In this document: one piece after another, positions 1 through 12,606 of the stretch | Layout of the letters: the number at the start of each line of letters is the position of its first letter | Numbering within the stretch: the stretch's first letter is position 1 | Assembly (NCBI GenBank): GCA_038245785.1 | Contig: JBBRSB010000001.1 | Span: 288,001-352,000, forward strand | DNA from: Gloeobacterales cyanobacterium | GTDB taxonomy: Bacteria; Cyanobacteriota; Cyanobacteriia; Gloeobacterales; PMM-0068 | Direction of reading: 5' to 3' | Length of the DNA: 64,000 nucleotides | Translations under genes and position numbers: made by a program | The notes under the pieces: model-generated | The model's database searches: none | Told to the model about the DNA's origin: nothing | Seen by the model: only the letters and a program-made list of their open reading frames with translations

Positions 1-949
1 GGTAGAGGCGACTACTGTCATTGCAATCCAGGTTAAGCGAGCGGCTGTTGTTGTAGGCTCCGGTGAAGAGCCAATCCCCAACTTTACCCGTAGCAAACAC
101 GGCACTGCGCAGGTCTAGTTTGGTGGTGTTGTTGCGGTCAGGCGGTAGAAAGTCTCGGAAACTACGGTAGTAATCGGTTCCTTGAGCGCCCAGTCGTAAA
201 TTAACTACGCCCGTGACGAGAGAAGGACGCAAACTGGTCTCGAATTCTAGCTGGGAAGAGGCTGCCAGGTCTGCCGCTCTGGCCTCAACCTTGACTACTT
301 GCGCTTCTAAGTTAGAACGTAGATTGGCTACATACTGGCCCTTTTGGACTTTGACCTGGAACCCAGCCTGGTCGGGGTCTGCGTCGGTTCCGGTGAATTC
401 GCCAGCGCTACTAGTCAGCGTCACCATCGCATCCCGGTCTGAACGATTGCCTTGCTCATCCAGAAGTTGGCCTTCTAGGGTAACGGTTGAACGACCATCG
501 GCGGGGAGCTTAGCCTGTGCAGACTTGACCGTGATTTTCTTAGGGATACCGCGCACGAATACTTTGACAATGATTTTCTCTCCACCCTTAACCTGGGCCA
601 CGAGCGTGTTCTCACCCTCTTTCAGGGAAAGGCCATACCAGGTTTGGGTGACCAGGTTGTTTTTGGTATCCGTTTCTGTACGCCCAATCAAGGTACGGTC
701 TGCTGGGACATCATTGACCAGCAGATCTACGTCTTTGCCCACATCCAGCGGAAACTGTAAGACCACATTCGTTGCCGGAATGTCCACGATTGAATTCGGG
801 GCAGGATTGAGAATTTTGACGACTCGGCTGGCTGCATTCGGCGGAGTGAGTTCCGTTTGGGCAATGGGCTCTGCTTTGACCACACAGCTAAAGCTCAAGC
901 TCCCAGCCAGATAGAAGAGAATTCCTGTACGTACTACAGAAGATTTCAT
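1..949 (-). CDS. Large secreted/outer-membrane protein of the DUF11 operon (N-terminal part; runs off the window edge)
   Basis: Not in the ORF track. ATG at 949 overlaps the stop of 946..2424 (ATGA). Reads MKSSVVRTGILFYLAGSLSFSCVVKAEPIAQ...: a signal peptide followed by beta-rich Ig-like sequence. Confidence 0.75.
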   Translation of the reverse strand, partial: MKSSVVRTGILFYLAGSLSFSCVVKAEPIAQTELTPPNAASRVVKILNPAPNSIVDIPATNVVLQFPLDVGKDVDLLVNDVPADRTLIGRTETDTKNNLVTQTWYGLSLKEGENTLVAQVKGGEKIIVKVFVRGIPKKITVKSAQAKLPADGRSTVTLEGQLLDEQGNRSDRDAMVTLTSSAGEFTGTDADPDQAGFQVKVQKGQYVANLRSNLEAQVVKVEARAADLAASSQLEFETSLRPSLVTGVVNLRLGAQGTDYYRSFRDFLPPDRNNTTKLDLRSAVFATGKVGDWLFTGAYNNSRSLNLDCNDSSRLY

Positions 950-2424
950 GGTCGTTTTTCCTTGTACGTGGGGGTGACGCCAAAATTCATCCGCACCAAA
1001 CCGCCTGGTTCTAAGTTCACGAAGCGAGACTGACTATTGAGTTCGATAAAATGGATATTTGGGGCGAAGGTATATCCCGGTAGGCTATTGAGGTCTAGAA
1101 CTCCGGTGTGGGGTCCAGAAGTCACATTGGCGACGGAGAACAGACCGTTGGGATCGGTGGTGATGCGGGTGCCATTGTCCATGAAGACCACGGCATTGGG
1201 CACTCCTGGTTCATCAGGCTGCTGTTCGCCGTCAAAGTTTTTGTCTGTAAATACTGTCCCGAGAATCAAACCCCGGTCGGAGAGGATACCAGGACGGATC
1301 TTGAGACGGTAGACAGCAGGGCCACCGCGTACTGGACGGTTGTTGCTTACCCGGCGACCGACTACGGAAGCTGAGTTTTGGCCTGAGCCGCGAATGGCAT
1401 CGGGCGTGAGGGTTGTGGCATAAGCAATGTTGAGACTCATGCCCACAGGAATGGTTGCACCTGTGGCATCTAAGAGGACGGTCGAGCCACTCCGGGTTGC
1501 CGTAACCGCTACGGGGCTACCTGAAACTTCTGCCCGTACGGAGTTTTGCAAGAAGTCAAAACCGAGGGGAAGAGTATCGGTTACCTGGATCGAATCTAGG
1601 GGAGAAGTAGATAAATTTTTGACCTCCACCCGATAGACAATCGTGTCTCCTGTTTCAGCGGTAGCACGATCTCCTATCTTGGTAATTTGGATTTCGTTGG
1701 GTTGGCAAACACTGGTATTGAGGCCAGTTATGAGGATCAATCCAACCGTTGCTGCATCGCCAATCGTAGTGGTATTGGTTGTGGAAACAGTCGGATTGCT
1801 GGTGATCGCTAAGGGATTATTATCTAGAGATGTAGCTTCATAGGTAACGTTGTTGCCCACACGGTTAGTAATTTTTAGAAGAATTCTGCGCTGGCTGTAA
1901 ATACCACCTGTAGGGGGATTGACCACTAGGATATAGGTTCTACCTGTATCCAATTGCCCTCTTCTTGCATCAAAGAGAAAGTTATAGTTGCCCTTGCCAC
2001 TATCAGACAGAAAGAAAGGATTACTGTTTTGCGTATTGGGAGCAGCTCCACCTGGAATGGTATTGCTCAAATCATCGGGTACTTCTGTGCGCGTCAGAGA
2101 TACTAGAGAGCCAAGGTCTGTGCCATTCGGCGTGTCATATAAACTAATACTGAATCCCTTATAGCTGCTCAGCGTTTCTCCATCACAACCTGTTACCCGG
2201 CCTAAGGGATCGATCAATTCAAAGCTGGAGCTATTCTGATTAGAAGCTAAACTGGCCTGAGCATAGCCCTGAGGATCACGATAGACCAGGCTCGCCTGAT
2301 TCCTGAAGGTCGTATTGGTCTGAGCCAAAACAGGTTGAGCTAGGGGTAACATTCCACCTACTAGTAATAGCTGAAAGCAACGTTGTAAGAAATCACTAGA
2401 GCGCTTTTTGCACAAGGAAGCCAC
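946..2424 (-). CDS. Secreted DUF11-domain protein with C-terminal SdrD-B/prealbumin-like domain
   Basis: Signal peptide (..QPVLA). DUF11 motifs ITKIGD..YRVEVKN..VTDTLPLGF..NSASV. C-terminal GTVFTDKNFDGEQQPDEPGVPNA. Confidence 0.8.
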   Translation of the reverse strand: MASLCKKRSSDFLQRCFQLLLVGGMLPLAQPVLAQTNTTFRNQASLVYRDPQGYAQASLASNQNSSSFELIDPLGRVTGCDGETLSSYKGFSISLYDTPNGTDLGSLVSLTRTEVPDDLSNTIPGGAAPNTQNSNPFFLSDSGKGNYNFLFDARRGQLDTGRTYILVVNPPTGGIYSQRRILLKITNRVGNNVTYEATSLDNNPLAITSNPTVSTTNTTTIGDAATVGLILITGLNTSVCQPNEIQITKIGDRATAETGDTIVYRVEVKNLSTSPLDSIQVTDTLPLGFDFLQNSVRAEVSGSPVAVTATRSGSTVLLDATGATIPVGMSLNIAYATTLTPDAIRGSGQNSASVVGRRVSNNRPVRGGPAVYRLKIRPGILSDRGLILGTVFTDKNFDGEQQPDEPGVPNAVVFMDNGTRITTDPNGLFSVANVTSGPHTGVLDLNSLPGYTFAPNIHFIELNSQSRFVNLEPGGLVRMNFGVTPTYKEKRP

Positions 2425-2454
2425 TGCTTTTCACTCCGATAAGGCATGAAGAAA

Positions 2455-2484
2455 TTGGGGACACCCTAAGGAAAGTGCCCCCAA
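2455..2484 (-). terminator. Stem-loop between the large subunit gene and the downstream genes (attenuator, terminator or mRNA stabiliser)
   Basis: Minus strand TTGGGGGCAC-loop-GTGTCCCCAA followed by TTTCTTC, just after the stop at 2498. Confidence 0.5.
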
Positions 2485-2497
2485 CTGTCTGTTTTAA

Positions 2498-4861
2498 CTA
2501 GTTGATCTTGCGGCGGAAAGTAAACGTTTTGCTTACCCCTGGTCCTATAGGGCCAGTAATGGTATCTACATATTTGGTGACATCCGTAGTTGCGGTTGTC
2601 CCCGCTTGGTCTACGGCGGCAGTAGCGCCTGTGGCACCACTGAAGAAGGTAATCACGGTACCCGTTCCAGAATCACGAGCGGAGCCAAGCACATTGCTGG
2701 TATCAAAGGAACCATTGCTGTCGTTGTCTAGAGCCCAGTTGTTGCCAGTCAATCCACCGATGGTGCCGTTTTCGGTAACCACAATGTCTTTGGCATCCAG
2801 CACCGCATTACTTCCAGAACCTGCTTGCGCTTCTGTGATGTTCTTGTAGGTGATGTTGTACTCGATGATGCTTCCAGGAGGAACATTGCCCGTGATCGCT
2901 GTTCCAGCAGGAACTAGTTCTGTTGCGCCATCGGCCGCTAGAACCCGTGCCGTTTTAGCCAGGGTCATGAAACCGACATAAACCCGGTCAATGGAGGTGT
3001 TCTGAGCATCGGCAGCATCTAAGCCAGCAGGCCCTAGATCGATAAAGGCTGCAACAGGAACAGGAATACCGGTGAAGGTGGGCGCTCCAGCAGGTAGGTC
3101 AACGGATACCCCGTAGTTGGCAATTCCACCGACGGGAATATCTGCGGCAGGAATTACGACGGGGGTCCCGGTAGTGGCAGGAACTCCTCCGGTGTAGGTG
3201 TAGGTTGCGGATTGACTACCGTAGGAGATTGTCACCTTAGTACCATTGGGGATAGTCCCTGCTGCGACGGTAGCAGGTGCTAGGGATATAGGAGTCGTAG
3301 AGGTCCCTGAGTTTTGCACGGTACCAGTGAAAGCTGCAGGGCTAGGGTCGGTTCCGACTAATAGGGCGGCCTTGTTGGTGAAGTCATCGTTATTGCTCGT
3401 AGGACCGATGGCCGTGGGTGCGCCAGAAGGACCATTTAGAACAGTAGAAGGAGGGGCAATCGAGACGAGGTTCGCTTCCCCATCTGGACCTGTACCGGAG
3501 TTATTACCGGGGTCATTGCCGTCGGTCGCGCCTGGGACGCCCGTGTTGGTGGCTGGATCAAAGGGGTCAGCAATAGGACTGGGGCCATCGGTGAAGTTGC
3601 TAGGATTCTGGTCTCCAGATTCGTCGTAGACCAGGATAGTGCCACCGGGAGTGGTACCGAATATTTGAGCCAGGTTACGAACACTGGTACCTGCGGATGT
3701 AACGCCACTGGTAACGACTTGGAAGGAAAATCCGGTGACGGTGGTTCCTGCACTTACTGGGCCATTGTTGATAAAACCGACCCGAGCTACGGTAGTGCCA
3801 GGTACGGTAGTCCAGGCAGCAAGCGTGGAGTTAGGCTTAGTAGCCGTGAGATCTGAGGTGTAGACGGTGGTCCAGCCTGAGGGTGCAACAGGGGTACCTG
3901 CTATCAAAACTGTGCTTACAGGAACAGCATCCGAAACCAAAATCCGAGTGACGGTAGCGCCATCTACGGTGATAGGAGTACCGGCTAAGGGAGCGGCAGA
4001 AAATCCTGTGCTTCCTAGAGGGGCAGCACTGTCTACCCTCAGGCTCAAACTGTAGGTAACCTTGTCATCGGTGAGCGTGCTTGGTGTGCCATTGTCCGTA
4101 TAGGCACTGCCCTTGAGGATGGCCGCGAAGGCTTGAGGGTTACTGCCCACGGTAGCGGTCTGGGTCGCACTGGCTTCACGAGTACCGTTAATCGGAGCGA
4201 AGGCTGCATCGGCAGGAACGGTTCCATCTACGGTAAATACGTCTCCGGCTTGGGAGGTAGCTGCCGTCCGCTCTTGGTTCTGAGCATCTCCGGGGGTGTT
4301 ACCCAATTGAATGGAGATTGCTTGGCCTGTTGTTGCGCCAGGACTGACTTGGATAGGGACTCTTACTTTGATCGTGCCGCCTACAGGAATATCGGCGGTA
4401 GTGAAAGAACCACCGCTAATTGCGACAAACCCGCTGCCCGTATCGACAGACAAGCTCCCATTGATACTGCCAGGACCAGCGGTCACCGTGGCCAGGTTAG
4501 GAATCGTAAATCTTGTTGCGTCGTTACCTGTGTTGGTAATTACGTAGTCATAGTAAAGGACTGAGCCGGGAGTGATAGAGGCTCCGGCCACTGCTGGCGT
4601 AACACCAGCGGAAGTAAGCGTCATACCCGCAACTTCTGCGACGGTGACGGTGACAGTATTGGAAGTGGTAGGGGGCTGCGCTACGCCTGCGTTGTCAGAG
4701 TAGGTAGCTTGGGCCGTGTTGCTGATAGTAGTACCAGCCGTAGTGCCAGAAGCCCAAGCGGCGGGAGCCAACTGTAGGATACTACTCACGAGAAAAGTAG
4801 CGGCCAGCAAACCACTACTGTGACTCCTTGGTGTTTTGGATAGCTTTTCGAGAAGACGCAT
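2498..4861 (-). CDS. Large secreted Thr/Gly-rich multi-Ig (DUF11-like) surface or fibre protein
   Basis: Signal peptide ending AAWA; N-terminal GTTISNTAQATY; repeated Y-x-I-T-N and VSDAVP Ig motifs; 787 aa. Confidence 0.8.
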   Translation of the reverse strand: MRLLEKLSKTPRSHSSGLLAATFLVSSILQLAPAAWASGTTAGTTISNTAQATYSDNAGVAQPPTTSNTVTVTVAEVAGMTLTSAGVTPAVAGASITPGSVLYYDYVITNTGNDATRFTIPNLATVTAGPGSINGSLSVDTGSGFVAISGGSFTTADIPVGGTIKVRVPIQVSPGATTGQAISIQLGNTPGDAQNQERTAATSQAGDVFTVDGTVPADAAFAPINGTREASATQTATVGSNPQAFAAILKGSAYTDNGTPSTLTDDKVTYSLSLRVDSAAPLGSTGFSAAPLAGTPITVDGATVTRILVSDAVPVSTVLIAGTPVAPSGWTTVYTSDLTATKPNSTLAAWTTVPGTTVARVGFINNGPVSAGTTVTGFSFQVVTSGVTSAGTSVRNLAQIFGTTPGGTILVYDESGDQNPSNFTDGPSPIADPFDPATNTGVPGATDGNDPGNNSGTGPDGEANLVSIAPPSTVLNGPSGAPTAIGPTSNNDDFTNKAALLVGTDPSPAAFTGTVQNSGTSTTPISLAPATVAAGTIPNGTKVTISYGSQSATYTYTGGVPATTGTPVVIPAADIPVGGIANYGVSVDLPAGAPTFTGIPVPVAAFIDLGPAGLDAADAQNTSIDRVYVGFMTLAKTARVLAADGATELVPAGTAITGNVPPGSIIEYNITYKNITEAQAGSGSNAVLDAKDIVVTENGTIGGLTGNNWALDNDSNGSFDTSNVLGSARDSGTGTVITFFSGATGATAAVDQAGTTATTDVTKYVDTITGPIGPGVSKTFTFRRKIN

Positions 4862-5417
4862 ATAGATGATGTGCCAGTGGATACAAAATCAAGCATTCCT
4901 CCGTATATCTCCTGATTTGTAAAGATTTTGTGAACTTCGTAATGACTACCTATGGCAAGATTGCGACAGAAACTATCTTCCTTTTATCTATAAATTGTTT
5001 GTATCTTGACAATCCAAATGGGGCACTTACGCTTACGATAGTTTGTAGTCGTTAGTGGAAAGCCTACAGGAAGAGACTTTAACTGTTTCATGTCAATACA
5101 GTTGATGATGTTTAAAAGTTGGGAAGCGCCATCGTATCCTAGAAATCTCTACAGGAGAGAAGAAAAACCCGTTCCCTAATTTACGGATAGGCTACTTACC
5201 CTATAAGGGTGATAGAAACTGGCTTCATTCTCTATATAGGTTATAAACAGTTTCTGCAACACCCCTGATGTTTGCCAATTAGGGTATGTGTGTTAGCAAT
5301 CTCTCTGATGCCTCGCAGCACAGCAGAAATCCCGTCACTAGTCCATTACACGTTCTCCATATGGGGTAAGCAGCAGTTTCAACTAGAATGTGGTTAATAC
5401 TGAATTGGCTAAGACCT

Positions 5418-5702
5418 ATGCCCAAAGCGATCTGGAATGGTGTAACTCTGGCAGAGAGCGCTCAATGTGAGCAGGTGGAGGGAAACTATTATTTCCCTGC
5501 GGACTCGATCAAGCAGGAGTATTTCAAAGAAAGCTCTACCCACACAACCTGCCCCTGGAAGGGGGTTGCCAGCTACTACAACGTGGAAGTGGATGGTCAG
5601 GTGAACAAGGACGCAGCCTGGTACTACCCCACGGCTAAAGATGCCGCCAAAAATATCCAGGGCCATATCGCTTTCTGGAAAGGCGTAAAAGTCGAGAAGT
5701 AA
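5418..5702 (+). CDS. DUF427 family protein
   Basis: VEGNYYFP, TCPWKGVASYY, AAWYYP and IAFWKGV motifs; start moved to MPKAIWNG. Confidence 0.9.
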   Translation: MPKAIWNGVTLAESAQCEQVEGNYYFPADSIKQEYFKESSTHTTCPWKGVASYYNVEVDGQVNKDAAWYYPTAKDAAKNIQGHIAFWKGVKVEK

Positions 5703-5747
5703 GGCCTGACAGTCTTTGCTGCTAAAGACCAGGACCATGGCTCTCTC

Positions 5748-5775
5748 GTAAGGGCGCATCGCGATGCGCCCTTAC
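5748..5775. repeat. 28-bp perfect REP-like palindrome
   Basis: GTAAGGGCGCATCGCGATGCGCCCTTAC is self-complementary. Confidence 0.85.
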
Positions 5776-5985
5776 CTATACGGAGGACTATCGCTGCGAT
5801 GTAGAGACCAGCGCGCTTGGGAGCGGTCTAGAAACTCCACCTATCCCAGAAAATGACCAAAAAGTGAGTACTTTTTGGTCTGGAAAGAGCATTTAACCCC
5901 CTAGAGAATGTGGATACCGATTCTGTACGCCGTTCAAAAGCAGTCAATGAATCGCTACGTTACCCACATCTTTAGGAAATACACT

Positions 5986-6609
5986 ATGGAAACGCCTACT
6001 TCCTCTCGGCGCGATGTTCTTGTGAAGGGAGCTGCCGCTGGTTTGACAGGAGTTTTGGGCATAGTTGCTATTGCGCGTCCGTCGATGGCAGCGACCGATC
6101 AAGAAAAAGATGCCGCTATCCTCAATGCTGCTATCGACTTAGAAAACCAAGCGATCTGGGCCTATGGAGTCGCTGGTGGAAAACTCAGCAGTACAGACGT
6201 CGGAAAAACGATTCTGGCTTTGGCCCTCCGCAACCAAGCAGACCACAAAAAACACCGAGATGCTTTAGCGGCGGTAGTCAAGAGCTTGGGTAAAACGCCT
6301 GCTCCTGCCAAACAGAGCTATGACCTCTCTACCTATATCAAGGCAGGGGAAGGCAATCTAAACTCCGATGCCAATATTGGCAAACTGGCCTTGGCCCTGG
6401 AAATTGATGCCGTTCTCGCCTATGGGGACGCCTTCAGCAAACTGAAAACCCCTGCCATTCTCGCCGCAGCCGGAACAATCGCTCCCGATGAAGCCGCCCA
6501 TGCAACGGCAATCCGGGCTGTATTCAAAACCCTAATCCCCTCCCTCGAATACGTGCCAGCCGCTTTTATCAGCGCTGATACGCGCAAGGATTGGATCTTG
6601 AAAGTCTAG
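5986..6609 (+). CDS. Tat-signal ferritin-like domain protein
   Basis: SRRDVL twin-arginine leader; LNAAIDLE..AY, HKKHRD, LEIDAV.AY, DEAAHA four-helix motifs. Confidence 0.8.
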   Translation: METPTSSRRDVLVKGAAAGLTGVLGIVAIARPSMAATDQEKDAAILNAAIDLENQAIWAYGVAGGKLSSTDVGKTILALALRNQADHKKHRDALAAVVKSLGKTPAPAKQSYDLSTYIKAGEGNLNSDANIGKLALALEIDAVLAYGDAFSKLKTPAILAAAGTIAPDEAAHATAIRAVFKTLIPSLEYVPAAFISADTRKDWILKV

Positions 6610-6689
6610 AGCTTTTGAAATTTGATGCTGATCTTGTTGGGTTATGCGCCTAGGTACTTCCCCCTGGGCGTTTTCTTGAGGAACTTTTA

Positions 6690-7097
6690 ATGAAACGCTA
6701 CGCCATAAATCTCGCTTTAGTACCTATTTTCTCCATGGGCATATCCACTGCAGCTTTAGCCATGTATCCCCTTATGCCTCTTATGCATAATGAATCTCAG
6801 AAAATCAGTCAAATGGCTAAGACAGGAAAAGCGGTGAAAACCGCTACGGTGATTATCGATGGCTTTCAATTTACACCGGATAATCTAGTGCTTAAAAAAG
6901 GGGGCAAGGTGACTTTTATGAACAAAGATTCCACTTCCCACACCGTTACACCAGAGGAAGGGTCAAAGTTCGTGGGAACGGGGCGTTTAGAAAAAGATGC
7001 CCCCTCTAAAACAGTCACGTTTACAACAATGGGTGAACAGAATTATTTCTGTGAAATTCATCCCAGTATGAAGGGCAAAATCACCGTTGTTCCTTAA
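6690..7097 (+). CDS. Secreted cupredoxin (plastocyanin/amicyanin-like)
   Basis: Signal peptide; N-K-D-x-x-x-H-T-V and YFCEIHPSM type-1 copper ligands. Confidence 0.85.
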   Translation: MKRYAINLALVPIFSMGISTAALAMYPLMPLMHNESQKISQMAKTGKAVKTATVIIDGFQFTPDNLVLKKGGKVTFMNKDSTSHTVTPEEGSKFVGTGRLEKDAPSKTVTFTTMGEQNYFCEIHPSMKGKITVVP

Positions 7098-9980: not shown

Positions 9981-11153
9981 TTAAACGTTCAGGAGCTTAC
10001 GGGCTTGCCATGCCCGTTGGTAAACCGCTTCCAGATTATCGCCCAAGACAGTGATGTGCCCTAGTTTGCGACTAGGACGAGCCGCCTTGCCGTACCAGTG
10101 AAAGTGCACATCTTCTAGCACTAGGAGCGGTGAGAGGTTGAGCGCACCTGGAGCCTCAACCTCTCCCAAAATGTTGACCATGACTGCTGCCGGACGAACG
10201 AGATCCGTACTGCCCAAGGGCCAATCCAAAATTGCCCGCAAATGTTGTTCAAACTGGCTCGTGACGCACCCTTCAATCGTGAAATGACCTGAATTATGGG
10301 GACGGGGCGCAAGTTCATTAATCCAGAGTTTGCCACTCGTTTCCTGAAAGAGTTCAACAGCGACAATCCCGACTCCTTGCACGGCTTCTACCGCCGCTCG
10401 GGCAAGTTGAGTCGCCTGTTCTTGGAGGGCAGTCGGGATAGCAGCGGGGGCCAAGACCACATGACAAACCTCCCCTACCTGCTGGGTTTCAACAACCGGA
10501 TAGCTCTTGATTTGGCCGGAGGGACTTCGCGCTACGAGAACGGCGAGTTCTCGTTCGAAGGGAATATACTGCTCCACCAAAAGAGGTTGCCGCGCAAATT
10601 TTTTCCAAATCGCATCCCAGTCATCCCCAGGGCGCAAAATAGCGGTCCCTTGCCCGTCATAGCCCTGTTTTCGGGTTTTCAAAACGACAGTTGGCCCATA
10701 GACTTTGGCAAAAGCCAGGAGGTCATCATAGGTTTCTACGCCCTCAAAAGCTGGAACGGGTAAGTCATACTTTTTGAGGTGCTGCCTTTGACCATATTTG
10801 TCCTGAATCCAGGTCAGTGTCTGTGGATGAGGCCAAATTGGAGTAGCGTATTGTTGAGCGATGGCAGCAAGGACCGCCCCATCGACCCATTCGTTTTCTA
10901 CCGTTAGCACATCTGCATGCTGAGCCAAGACTCCCAAAAGCTCAGGGTCTTCCAGACTGCCCACCAGTGCTTGACTCACCTGAGCCGCACTTTCCTGTGG
11001 ATCATTCGCCAAAATTTGGGTCTGAATTCCCATACGGTGGGCCGCTAGAGCCAACATCCGCCCCAACTGTCCCCCACCAATGATGCCTACGCGCTTGCTG
11101 TAGGACTGGAGCGGTTGAGATTCTGTTTTGACCAAAGCTAATGACTGTTCCAA
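9981..11153 (-). CDS. purK: N5-CAIR synthase
   Basis: [33 protein letters not shown]; adjacent to purE. Confidence 0.97.
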
Positions 11154-11260
11154 AAGACTAAATGGATACGACCCTGTAATTCTCGCTCAAGTGGGCACTC
11201 TTCCGATGGGTCTATCTTAAGATTTTGCTGCATACATAGATTTTCCGTTTTCCCCTCACC

Positions 11261-11446
11261 TTGCCTGAAGGTTCATGGTTGGGTCCCATTCTGGATATCC
11301 TAAAAATTTCGGCGTACGGTAGAGACTTCATATATGAAGTCTCTACCGTACGCAAACAGGGGATGAATGCCATTGGGTGGAACGGTATGCCCATCCAGAA
11401 ATACAAAATTGCCTAGATATTGTATCGGCAGCACCTGTAGCATGAC
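11261..11446. repeat. Dispersed ~190-bp element with central 42-bp perfect palindrome (copy A)
   Basis: Aligns with 61297-61479; palindrome at 11312-11353. Confidence 0.8.
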
Positions 11447-11496
11447 ATGACCAAGCCCTCTTGCACCATGGCTTCCGTAGGACCCTGCAGGCGGGA

Positions 11497-12606
11497 TTAA
11501 GGGGTGTAGACCGTAGGTCGTGCGGAGCGGGTCCGTTGAATCAATGCTCCTAACTCTGCCAGGTCCTGACCTTCTCGATGGAGCCAGAAGAGGTTGCCCT
11601 CGGCGCGGTGACGATAGATCCAGCCACTCAGCATGTGCACTTCATCCAAGCGGTCCTGAGGTAAGGTAAAACAAGGCTGATCATTGGGTTGTGTATAGTT
11701 TTTTTGATAGAAGCTTTTAAGCTGCTTTCTAATCGTTGGCATGGAAGCCGTGGTGTTGAATTCATGGGTGGCCAGGAGGGTTCCAGATTGTACCCAAAAT
11801 ACTTGAGCCGTTCCCTTGACTTGGCCAGGATAGACCATCACCAGGTCTAAAACGACCCGTTCACGAACCAAATTCTGACGCTGGAGAAATCCCTCTAAGG
11901 CAAACAGACGATTGCGCCACTGGGCAGCCCGTTCAAAAGCTTCTTGCGTAGCACAGGATTCCATTTGTTCATGGAAGTGCTGCAACACCTCTTTGGAGGC
12001 GCTGGCTTCTCCCCGGAGCATAGCCCGTAGCTGTTCTATAGGGGTGTGGTACGCTTCTTCATCCACCCAGCCACGACAAGGGGCTAGACACTTGCCCAAT
12101 TGGTCCAAGAGGCAGCCTTGACGAATCGCGGAAAGGTCCTTACAGGCACGCAGTCCAAGCGCTTCATTCAAGAGACTGGCCATCCAATCAACGGTTCTGG
12201 CCTTGACATAGGGACCATAGTATTCGGCCCCATCATTCCTCAGGCTCCGCGTCAAATGCAGCCGAGGGAAGGGCTCGTGGACTGTGAGGCGTAAAAAAGG
12301 ATAGTGCTGATAGCGACGCTGTAACCGATTAAAGGGCGGCAAATGCTTCTTGATCAGCTGATTTTCTAAGATGAGCGCGGCTAGCTCAGAGCCAGTGGAG
12401 GCTATCTCCACCGTAGAAGCTTCAAATTTCAGGCGTTGGGTCGGACGAGAGTGGCCCCCTTCCTTGCGAAAGTAAGACCGGACACGGGTTTTAAGCTTTA
12501 CAGATTTGCCGACATAGAGAATCTCTTCTCGGCAATTGCGGAATAGATAAATACCTGGAGTGTCCGGCAATTCTGCCAGTTGGTCGATGGAAACGCGCAC
12601 AGACAC
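11497..12606 (-). CDS. UvrC/Cho-like GIY-YIG excinuclease (no C-terminal HhH region)
   Basis: PDTPGIYLF..LYVGKS..RVRSYF, Cys cluster, UVR motif FERAAQWRN. Confidence 0.85.
   Translation of the reverse strand: MSVRVSIDQLAELPDTPGIYLFRNCREEILYVGKSVKLKTRVRSYFRKEGGHSRPTQRLKFEASTVEIASTGSELAALILENQLIKKHLPPFNRLQRRYQHYPFLRLTVHEPFPRLHLTRSLRNDGAEYYGPYVKARTVDWMASLLNEALGLRACKDLSAIRQGCLLDQLGKCLAPCRGWVDEEAYHTPIEQLRAMLRGEASASKEVLQHFHEQMESCATQEAFERAAQWRNRLFALEGFLQRQNLVRERVVLDLVMVYPGQVKGTAQVFWVQSGTLLATHEFNTTASMPTIRKQLKSFYQKNYTQPNDQPCFTLPQDRLDEVHMLSGWIYRHRAEGNLFWLHREGQDLAELGALIQRTRSARPTVYTP

Follow-up and report, generated by a model that had tools for sequence, protein, structure and literature searches.

To our knowledge, the known pili of two-membrane (diderm) bacteria are non-covalent. 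Covalent fibers are known from sortase systems, from BsaA of Clostridium perfringens, and from an archaeal thread. Here, we analyze a gene cluster at the start of a 64,000-nt stretch of a Gloeobacterales cyanobacterium genome (GCA_038245785.1, contig JBBRSB010000001.1, positions 288,001 to 352,000; this whole stretch is hereafter referred to as the window). The cluster encodes a 787-aa shaft protein, a base adaptor, a large outer-membrane protein (the barrel), and two candidate tip adhesins, and it probably builds a covalent fiber: the two-strand N-terminal hairpin (plug) of one chain would complete an unfinished C-terminal domain (socket) of another, and the joints would be locked through a K636-N48 isopeptide bond. 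If true, this adds to the known covalent fibers an enzyme-free pilus with its own export barrel.

The domain in question is related to CLIPPER, the CnaA-like fold of DUF11 (PF01345, PDB 9IFR), in which K715 and N806 are bonded with the participation of D748 (PMC12617251). The earlier note on this DNA had called DUF11 CnaB-type, and this assignment has to be changed accordingly. The proteins of the cluster share with CLIPPER and DUF7925 the CnaA-like immunoglobulin (Ig) fold, the first-strand Lys, the acid catalyst, and the penultimate-strand Asn, and the adaptor and tips carry complete copies. CLIPPER is, however, described only as forming an intramolecular bond in monomeric adhesin stalks (PMC12617251, whose main text does not use the word "donor"), whereas the domain here would be split after strand E, with the closing strands on the N-terminus of another protein. 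Compared with the CnaB pattern, in which Lys and Asn lie on adjacent first and last strands with a Glu catalyst, the observations are mixed: N48 falls on the penultimate-strand Asn as in CnaA, yet E697 is a Glu, and in the model the last-strand N68 touches K636. Giant DUF11 adhesins and grappling hooks (GhlA) similarly expose beads-on-a-string DUF11 stalks at the cell surface, but each is one very long polypeptide of complete domains whose length is encoded in the gene and not reached by polymerization (PMC13319060).

In its architecture, the cluster resembles chaperone-usher pili (type 1, P), with an incomplete-Ig tip, an N-terminal donor on the next subunit, and a base terminator, and also on the export side, with an outer-membrane barrel that has an inserted domain and periplasmic Ig domains. 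Those pili are non-covalent and use one donor strand, a 24-stranded usher, and a strand-donating PapD chaperone (PMC13721041); here, by contrast, the model has the N-terminal donor complete the neighbor's Ig fold with two strands, the candidate helper is a socket instead of a donor, and the barrel is modeled with ~36-38 strands. The earlier note had seen no sortase or chaperone-usher genes, which agrees with our searches of the 98%-complete genome: no match to the usher (PF00577; control positive in E. coli, and none in the barrel protein), to PapD-type chaperones (PF00345, PapD_N), or to sortase (PF04203) was found.

BsaA, a TasA-family protein, forms an intermolecular N35-K74 bond with E56 by "exchange and lock" (10.1101/2024.11.04.621531). 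The proposed joint is alike in that an N-terminal donor Asn would be locked to the neighbor's Lys by the recipient's acid without sortase. BsaA differs in coming from a monoderm, as a TasA-like protein of a SipW operon with no outer-membrane barrel, while the present system uses a hairpin of two strands and CLIPPER subunits with several domains, and it assigns tip, base, barrel, and small socket to different proteins. Neither shaft nor adaptor had a TasA-family match in Pfam or NCBIfam at E up to 1, and no genome-wide search for SipW was made. The archaeal thread Saci_0406 is also built head to tail by donor strands and has an isopeptide bond between subunits, but there Asn57 is bonded to the N-terminal Asp24 of subunit n+2, in a single-domain archaeal protein with no outer membrane (PMC9715654). 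Type V pili arise from a lipoprotein precursor matured by a protease (PMC9715654); the shaft has no cysteine at its predicted cleavage site AWA-S, located by eye, and so is unlike a lipoprotein precursor. The system would thus work like a covalent chaperone-usher pilus, but it belongs with none of the chaperone-usher, sortase, type V, or TasA systems. Donor strands with an isopeptide lock, a tip-shaft-base fiber with a barrel, and the CLIPPER domain are each known; we found no description of their combination in diderms in a literature search that mostly excluded subscription papers, and it is apparently undescribed, although the supplements of PMC12617251 and of the preprints could list split domains.

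Plug and socket in the shaft, adaptor, and tips

We confirmed all residue and open reading frame (ORF) positions against the sequence, and every coordinate cited in the earlier note checked out; signal peptides were judged by eye. What had been described as a three-gene operon proved, when the assembly was read past the window, to be five genes on the (-) strand. The shaft (2498..4861), a candidate major subunit, is followed by the 492-aa base adaptor (946..2424), which overlaps as ATGA at 946-949, as had been noted, with the gene of the 1197-aa outer-membrane protein (5′ part at 1..949 of the window, whole gene G000:C1:285356-288949). Outside the window, on the same strand, lie the two tip adhesin candidates, a 982-aa ORF (G000:C1:282445-285393) and a 1361-aa protein (G000:C1:276602-280687).

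Behind its signal peptide (residues 1-37), the shaft opens with a donor hairpin (residues 44-75, 4637..4732 on the (-) strand) that is the counterpart of strands F and G in a CLIPPER-type domain; it carries N48 (4718-4720) and A50 in TISNTAQATY and N68 (4658-4660) in SNTVTVTV. Three complete Ig-like domains follow on the same strand: D1 (79-237, 4151..4627), which lacks a strand-A Lys; D2 (244-468, 3458..4132), a complete CnaA-like DUF7925 domain (PF25546, 194 bits in Pfam); and D3 (473-630, 2972..3445). Structural alignments cover all three whole, and because they span residues 79-237 entirely, D1 is complete without the N-terminal strands. The chain ends in D4 (631-787, 2501..2971, (-) strand), the acceptor, whose elements run in the order strand-A Lys (K636, 2954-2956, in LAKTA), PG..YxITYxN strand (YNITYKN, 668-674), acid strand (E697, 2771-2773, in VVTE), and chain end; with the C-terminus PGVSKTFTFRRKIN, whose final residues are FRRKIN, it stops short of two closing strands. 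The two-strand opening of the shaft and the motifs of its unclosed last domain are thus as the earlier note had described them.

The AlphaFold2 model of the shaft (83 sequences) has a mean predicted local distance difference test (pLDDT) of 84.6 and a predicted template modeling score (pTM) of 0.61, with a helix at residues 16-29, low confidence to residue 37, and a hairpin at pLDDT ~86-93. D2 matches CLIPPER 9ifr (Z 8.8, root-mean-square deviation [rmsd] 2.8, 120 residues aligned). DUF7925 is itself described as CnaA-like, with the triad K264-D326-N415 in Q8YS00 (PMC12617251 Table 1), and because spacing and motif match that triad, we assign D2 a candidate intramolecular triad K250-D311-N396. 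Sequence searches of the PDB with the shaft and its profile returned no solved relative, and fold searches with the model gave generic Ig and CnaA matches only (whole-chain template modeling [TM] score ≤0.15), with D4 barely probed. The closest named relative, from a Gloeobacterales genome, is 64% identical. The best match of D1, whose matches span 75/79-237/239, was 7wrk (Z 9.9, rmsd 2.7, 127 aligned), which is TTHA1873 of Thermus thermophilus; the same species gives a sub-cut-off DUF7925 match, and a related system in this model thermophile is possible.

The adaptor carries the complementary set of parts. Its N-terminus is of the donor type (FRNQASLVY with N42 at 2299-2301, SNQ at 61-63), it contains a complete CLIPPER domain with the triad K249/D283/N350, and it has no acceptor. 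The DUF11 domain reported by the earlier note scores above the cut-off at residues 245-351 (39.8 bits, cut-off 24.6), and the donor-like start is as that note described it; the SdrD_B-like tail fell below the cut-off (22.4 vs 29.7). The two tips have no donor and end in a C-terminal acceptor (K806 and D876 in the 982-aa ORF, K1179 and D1274 in the 1361-aa protein) within a conserved domain that stops at F-x-A-K-V-N, like FRRKIN in the shaft; in shaft and tips alike, the chain stops with the final socket strand, and no C-terminal sorting signal follows. PF01345 also scores above its cut-off in the tips (88.7 and 127.3 bits) and in this genome's own copy of a small protein described below (26.0 bits). 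In the adaptor, Lys, acid, and Asn all lie within one domain, which is not the case in shaft D4 or the tip C-termini, both of which end before the Asn strand.

This division of parts is conserved. Among 79 named loci, the adaptor follows the shaft in 74, and the barrel is also present, in the order shaft-adaptor-barrel, in 72, with two loci stopping at a contig edge; the synteny check suggested by the earlier note thus came out in favor of the cluster. A tip socket lies within the 10-kb flank in 46/72; for many of the remaining 26, the following gene extends past the end of the locus or is of a different kind. The donor motif occurs in 80/80 shafts, 65/74 adaptors (by regular expression; N42 is kept in 72/74 by alignment), 2/43 tips, and 0/120 cyanobacterial barrels. 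Each residue of the adaptor's CLIPPER triad is kept in 74/74. Tip N-termini vary freely, and tip sockets keep the Lys in 40/43 (3 gaps) and the Asp in 43/43.

We then considered the shaft residues in 192 sequences, comprising homologs >700 aa and the non-identical shafts of related loci. N48 and K636 are each present in 192/192, position 697 is acidic in 192/192 (189 Glu and 3 Asp), and N68 is kept in 191/192, so the conservation predicted for the Lys, Glu, and Asn was borne out; the candidate triad inside D2 is kept less tightly (175, 184, and 179 of 192). At ≥97% conservation, we counted 118/787 columns, 15/42 Asn, 1/12 Lys of the mature chain (K636), and 2/9 Glu. Because so many columns and Asn reach this level, the Asn conservation alone is weak evidence, and by residue class only the Lys and Glu stand out.

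A small protein of ~187 aa lies between shaft and adaptor in 73/74 loci (one truncated); the only clusters without it at this place are those of L004, from Gloeobacterales, and of the window. It consists of a signal peptide and a socket with Gln in place of the acid in 69/72; the copy in this genome has Glu. It may or may not lack the strand-A Lys, depending on a two-residue shift in register: hhalign aligns A/G52 with K636, but a conserved K54 (69 Lys and 3 Arg among 72) sits two residues on, on the same face. A PDB sequence search with it found no relative. We regard this socket-only protein as a candidate chaperone or cap.

Modeled fit of hairpin and socket and competing readings

The 69 complete CLIPPER domains in the retrieved loci served to build a CLIPPER profile. 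The shaft hairpin aligns to its last two strands, with N48 on the conserved Asn. When joined to the real donor, 74/83 shaft sockets reach the last ten profile columns, compared to 29 with a shuffled donor and 19 alone; the corresponding counts are 37/43, 9, and 1 for tip sockets and 67/72, 38, and 0 for small-protein sockets. The adaptor donor profile matches the shaft donor (hhalign probability 92%, E 6.5e-7).

To model the joint, we combined D4 (628-787) with residues 38-242, so that D1 was present as a competitor for the hairpin. The hairpin was placed in the last domain and not in D1, as the earlier note had anticipated, with a score of 0.86 compared to 0.00 for the best of three controls; contacts agree by at least 96% between runs, and the partner's pLDDT is at least 85. 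The score mark is reached by 116/157 solved complexes and 2/215 mismatched pairs, counts that apply only roughly with our alignment. The modeled interface comprises residues 38-77, mostly the hairpin, in which residues 52-54 are paired with 695-693, and 67-75 with both 636-640 and 654-666; extrapolating from these pairs, E697 would face A50 and neighbor N48. D1 also contacts D4.

On this basis, we propose the following mechanism. Subunits would exit by Sec, judging from their signal peptides. The socket that ends the tip adhesin would be a CLIPPER domain without strands F and G, to be filled by the N-terminal hairpin of a shaft; each shaft socket would accept the hairpin of the next shaft, repeatedly, and the plug-only base adaptor would terminate the chain and dock on the barrel via its SdrD_B-like tail. 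The order tip - shaft(n) - base - barrel follows from which proteins have a plug and which a socket, and because tips are socket-only and the base is plug-only, complementation between chains would be necessary for these at least. In a filled socket, K636 and E697 (Asp in tips) would meet N48 of the next chain (N42 in the base), rebuilding a CnaA-type triad between chains that would form the Lys-Asn isopeptide bond autocatalytically. The small protein probably shields or caps free plugs, and the barrel would serve as export channel and anchor. Our analysis shows the parts list, the conservation, and the modeled fit of hairpin in socket; from them, we infer polymerization, the bond, the assembly order, and the roles of the barrel and small protein. 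A naturally split isopeptide domain of this kind is a candidate protein-ligation tool, in effect a natural tag-and-catcher chain.

Several observations weigh against this proposal. The last shaft domain is unmatched by the Pfam DUF11 and NCBIfam DUF11-repeat models, with no DUF11 match in the shaft or 6 homologs at E up to 10, and hhalign of D4 against DUF11 gives a probability of 24% (E 8.5e-4), a weak match that does align E697 on D283. For the "split DUF11" domain of the earlier note, the family models thus give no detection; the DUF11 likeness of D4 lies in its motifs, the weak profile match, and the models, together with an Atlas feature (0.90) that leads to a cluster of DUF11 fragments. 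E697 is Glu, and CnaA folds usually use Asp. Shaft socket plus donor scores low against the CLIPPER profile (mean 3.5 bits vs -3.6 shuffled), and the donor alone gave no profile-profile match to the adaptor's narrow CLIPPER profile. Among the 25 best-resolved pairs of the complex model, K636 pairs with S67, N68, and V70, and K636-N48 is absent. The model may have passed by its likeness to intact CnaA/CLIPPER domains, as two halves of a known fold, and with cut chains, it cannot distinguish closure between chains from closure within one. Covariation between donor and D4, calculated as mutual information with average-product correction over the 192 shafts (66 effective sequences), does not rise above that with other domains, the top 40 donor pairs giving 10 each for D1, D2, and D4. 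The adaptor is not beside the shaft in 5/79 loci. Finally, two distant shafts (L156:7918-9831 and L158:7967-9835) keep the donor Asn but have Leu and Asn where other sockets have Lys and Asp.

These two shafts are probably non-covalent variants, as judged from their residues, and since they keep the donor Asn without the Lys and Asp, the bond is not needed everywhere. One could therefore envisage the same head-to-tail fiber held by strand complementation only, with Lys, acid, and Asn structural or vestigial. Some DUF11 domains are described as lacking a bond (PMC12617251), and BsaA N35A oligomers are still resistant to sodium dodecyl sulfate until heated (10.1101/2024.11.04.621531). We nevertheless consider such a fiber unlikely here, as K636 is the sole near-invariant Lys of 12, the acid is kept in 192/192 shafts and 43/43 tips, and a buried unpaired Lys is hard to account for without a bond. 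Where the bond lies is a separate matter. The N68 contact of K636 in the best-resolved pairs, the near-invariance of N68, and a Glu catalyst would fit a CnaB-like geometry in which first and last strands are bonded as K636-N68, making N68 a second candidate next to the invariant N48 that the earlier note had named. We consider this improbable: the N68 position is kept in distinct shaft donors (59/60 and 29/31) but lost in most base donors (retained in 5/60 cyanobacterial adaptors and in 9/26 and 16/44 barrel-fused donors), which favors N48, whose position persists in nearly all adaptors; D2 carries both Asn as well, and for its family, the partner is predicted to be the Asn on the penultimate strand (PMC12617251 Table 1); and tips use Asp.

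The length of the chain can be questioned as well. The product could be a short modular adhesin of tip, zero to a few shafts, and base that sits on the barrel, or a matrix polymer that is shed, and not a long anchored pilus. In Roseovarius, Sinorhizobium, and Vibrio, the related barrel has one giant protein as its neighbor, which does indicate that it can serve non-polymeric adhesins. However, nothing built into a subunit that has plug and socket alike would stop the chain from growing. Furthermore, the shaft gene comes first, a stem-loop (z < -2) follows 19/29 shaft genes of related loci vs 7/27 tip genes, and shaft codon use is at the 95th percentile of the genome vs 14-40 for the tips, which is weak evidence; we rate the short form, too, as unlikely. 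Least probable in our estimation is that the shaft closes on itself, its own hairpin filling its own last domain to give a circularized monomer, so that only tip and base pair between chains. The ordered hairpin of the single-chain model suggests placement in a same-chain domain, but AlphaFold also self-complements known polymer subunits (PMC9715654). D1 directly follows the hairpin and touches D4 in the model, so that self-closure would require a ring of all domains; shafts vary in length from 422 to ~900 aa with the same ends, and one has only two domains between plug and socket. The covalent fiber with a K636-N48 lock thus remains the reading that we prefer.

The predicted outer-membrane barrel and its relatives

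The 1197-aa protein has two N-terminal Ig-like domains, which resemble invasin and the C-terminal domains of GH2, followed by a barrel with an inserted beta domain. The earlier note had suggested a barrel prediction on this gene, and it does model as a very large barrel: the AlphaFold2 model of residues 241-1105 (63 sequences; pLDDT 83.5, pTM 0.79) has ~36-38 long strands, counted from the secondary-structure list, with the beta domain inserted after the eighth. Because closed barrels align from residue 1 to 860, the model suggests one single barrel. Fold searches returned generic barrels only (TM ≤0.24 by query length) and no close solved relative. The longest structural alignments are to SprA (459 residues) and SlpA (486 residues), at rmsd 13-17 Å; SprA of type IX secretion (6h3i) has Z 11.8 and rmsd 13.3 over its 459 aligned residues, and FimD (Z 12.1, rmsd 10.9) appears among many unrelated barrels. 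Likeness to SprA and SlpA thus appears generic, and searches of solved structures and NCBIfam gave no SprA or SlpA profile match. A resemblance of the inserted domain to SprA found no support in profile searches. Many homologs are labeled TonB-dependent receptor, an identity that we rejected for this protein: it has no Pfam or NCBIfam match to the TonB plug or barrel and is modeled with far more strands than the 22 of TonB-dependent receptor barrels.

BAB74988.1 (1289 aa), 61% identical to the barrel over 1080 residues, is presumably All3289 of Anabaena PCC 7120, which would place a relative in a model strain. All3289 (1289 aa) had an earlier OmpA-like assignment and is described with a possible outer-membrane anchor (PMC9705863).

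The system is patchy and accessory. The shaft is found in 37/301 genomes sampled from the phylum and the barrel in 10/31 relatives (both counts include this genome); the system is present in Nostoc, Fischerella, and Leptolyngbya. Homolog searches returned 1271 shaft and 1616 barrel relatives; with the barrel core, 2285 relatives were obtained from 50%-identity representatives at an E-value limit of 0.001. Some cyanobacterial loci depart from the standard layout. Orphan 799-aa Nostoc shafts without a nearby adaptor or barrel occur in L025, L032, L044, and L076 (at about 10000-12400), and a second shaft with a small-type gene lies upstream of the L066 operon (L066:2831-5943); these could act in trans as alternative shafts. 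Elsewhere, open frames of 1800-2700 aa contain shaft domains along with the socket, as fused or giant forms (L042:4468-9843; G023:C1:1825475-1826488; G213:C1:2431010-2432899). In L019, L037, L050, L063, L065, and L070, a ~700-740-aa gene without a tip socket follows the barrel, and 5/6 of its products end in a similar EDLQ-type motif.

The same plug and socket grammar extends outside cyanobacteria. A donor motif is found at the start of 43/58 distant barrels ≥1500 aa (random windows, mean 0.6; two look misplaced) and 0/15 shorter ones, from which adaptor and barrel appear to be often fused in distant relatives. Donors in barrels were counted by motif; a narrow donor hidden Markov model recovered only 11/97 barrel homologs. 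The 60 metagenome loci that we chose via donor-barrel fusions mostly encode, where long enough, tip, small protein, shaft, and donor-barrel. Their 31 distinct shafts (422-642 aa; duplicates removed, four motif false positives reassigned to tips, and four proteins dropped from the small class) have the closing Asn strand in 0/31 and the acid (Asp) in 29/31; in 26 distant small proteins, the acid position is Asp in 21, Asn in 3, and Thr in 2. An Acinetobacter haemolyticus plasmid (L082:7969-21476) carries the small protein, a fragmented shaft, a 2020-aa donor-barrel fusion, an OmpA-family gene, and a tip. In Roseovarius (L083), Vibrio (L084), and Sinorhizobium (L085), the barrel lies beside one giant 3,500-4,300-aa protein with no shaft gene seen; the giants are annotated DUF11 in Roseovarius and Sinorhizobium, and, by eye, all three have a tail like that of the adaptor. 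Export or anchoring of giant adhesins may be a general role of the barrel family.

We conclude that this is a real, conserved, and apparently undescribed fiber system with a fair chance of being its own pathway. More specifically, and tentatively, since we put this a little short of probable, it could represent a separate and widespread diderm pathway of covalent, sortase-free, split-CLIPPER fibers whose subunits are kept apart by a socket-mimic chaperone and pass through a so far unrecognized ~36-38-strand translocon that also exports giant adhesins and is now mislabeled as a TonB-dependent receptor. If true, many proteins labeled hypothetical, DUF11, or TonB-dependent receptor would gain a function.

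Other features of the locus

The stem-loop of the window lies just 3′ of the shaft stop codon (2450..2490, (-) strand) and is a candidate terminator or stabilizer. The 81-nt stretch containing it folds at -26.9 kcal/mol (z -2.7), with 2/200 shuffles equally good; it was missed by the terminator scan, and promoter and terminator scans of the locus were at chance level. No RNA holder is listed for the locus, which says nothing about expression. Such a structure would raise the shaft over the downstream genes, and stem-loop and codon use are consistent with the shaft as the major subunit.

The same genome holds a second complete cluster (C11:110612-122032, L081), with a shaft of 870, small protein of 183, adaptor of 498, barrel of 1227, and tip of 893 aa. 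This second cluster may be the source of the small protein for the window cluster, where it is absent, and the subunits of both may mix.

Upstream of the shaft, divergent genes (window 5388-7097, (+) strand) encode DUF427, ferritin-like, and cupredoxin-like proteins, with no connection to the fiber cluster seen. At the other end, two PIN-domain genes on the (+) strand (G000:C1:281105-282473, L001:7105-8473) separate the two tip genes, and because these opposite-strand genes intervene, the 1361-aa tip gene may be transcribed separately.

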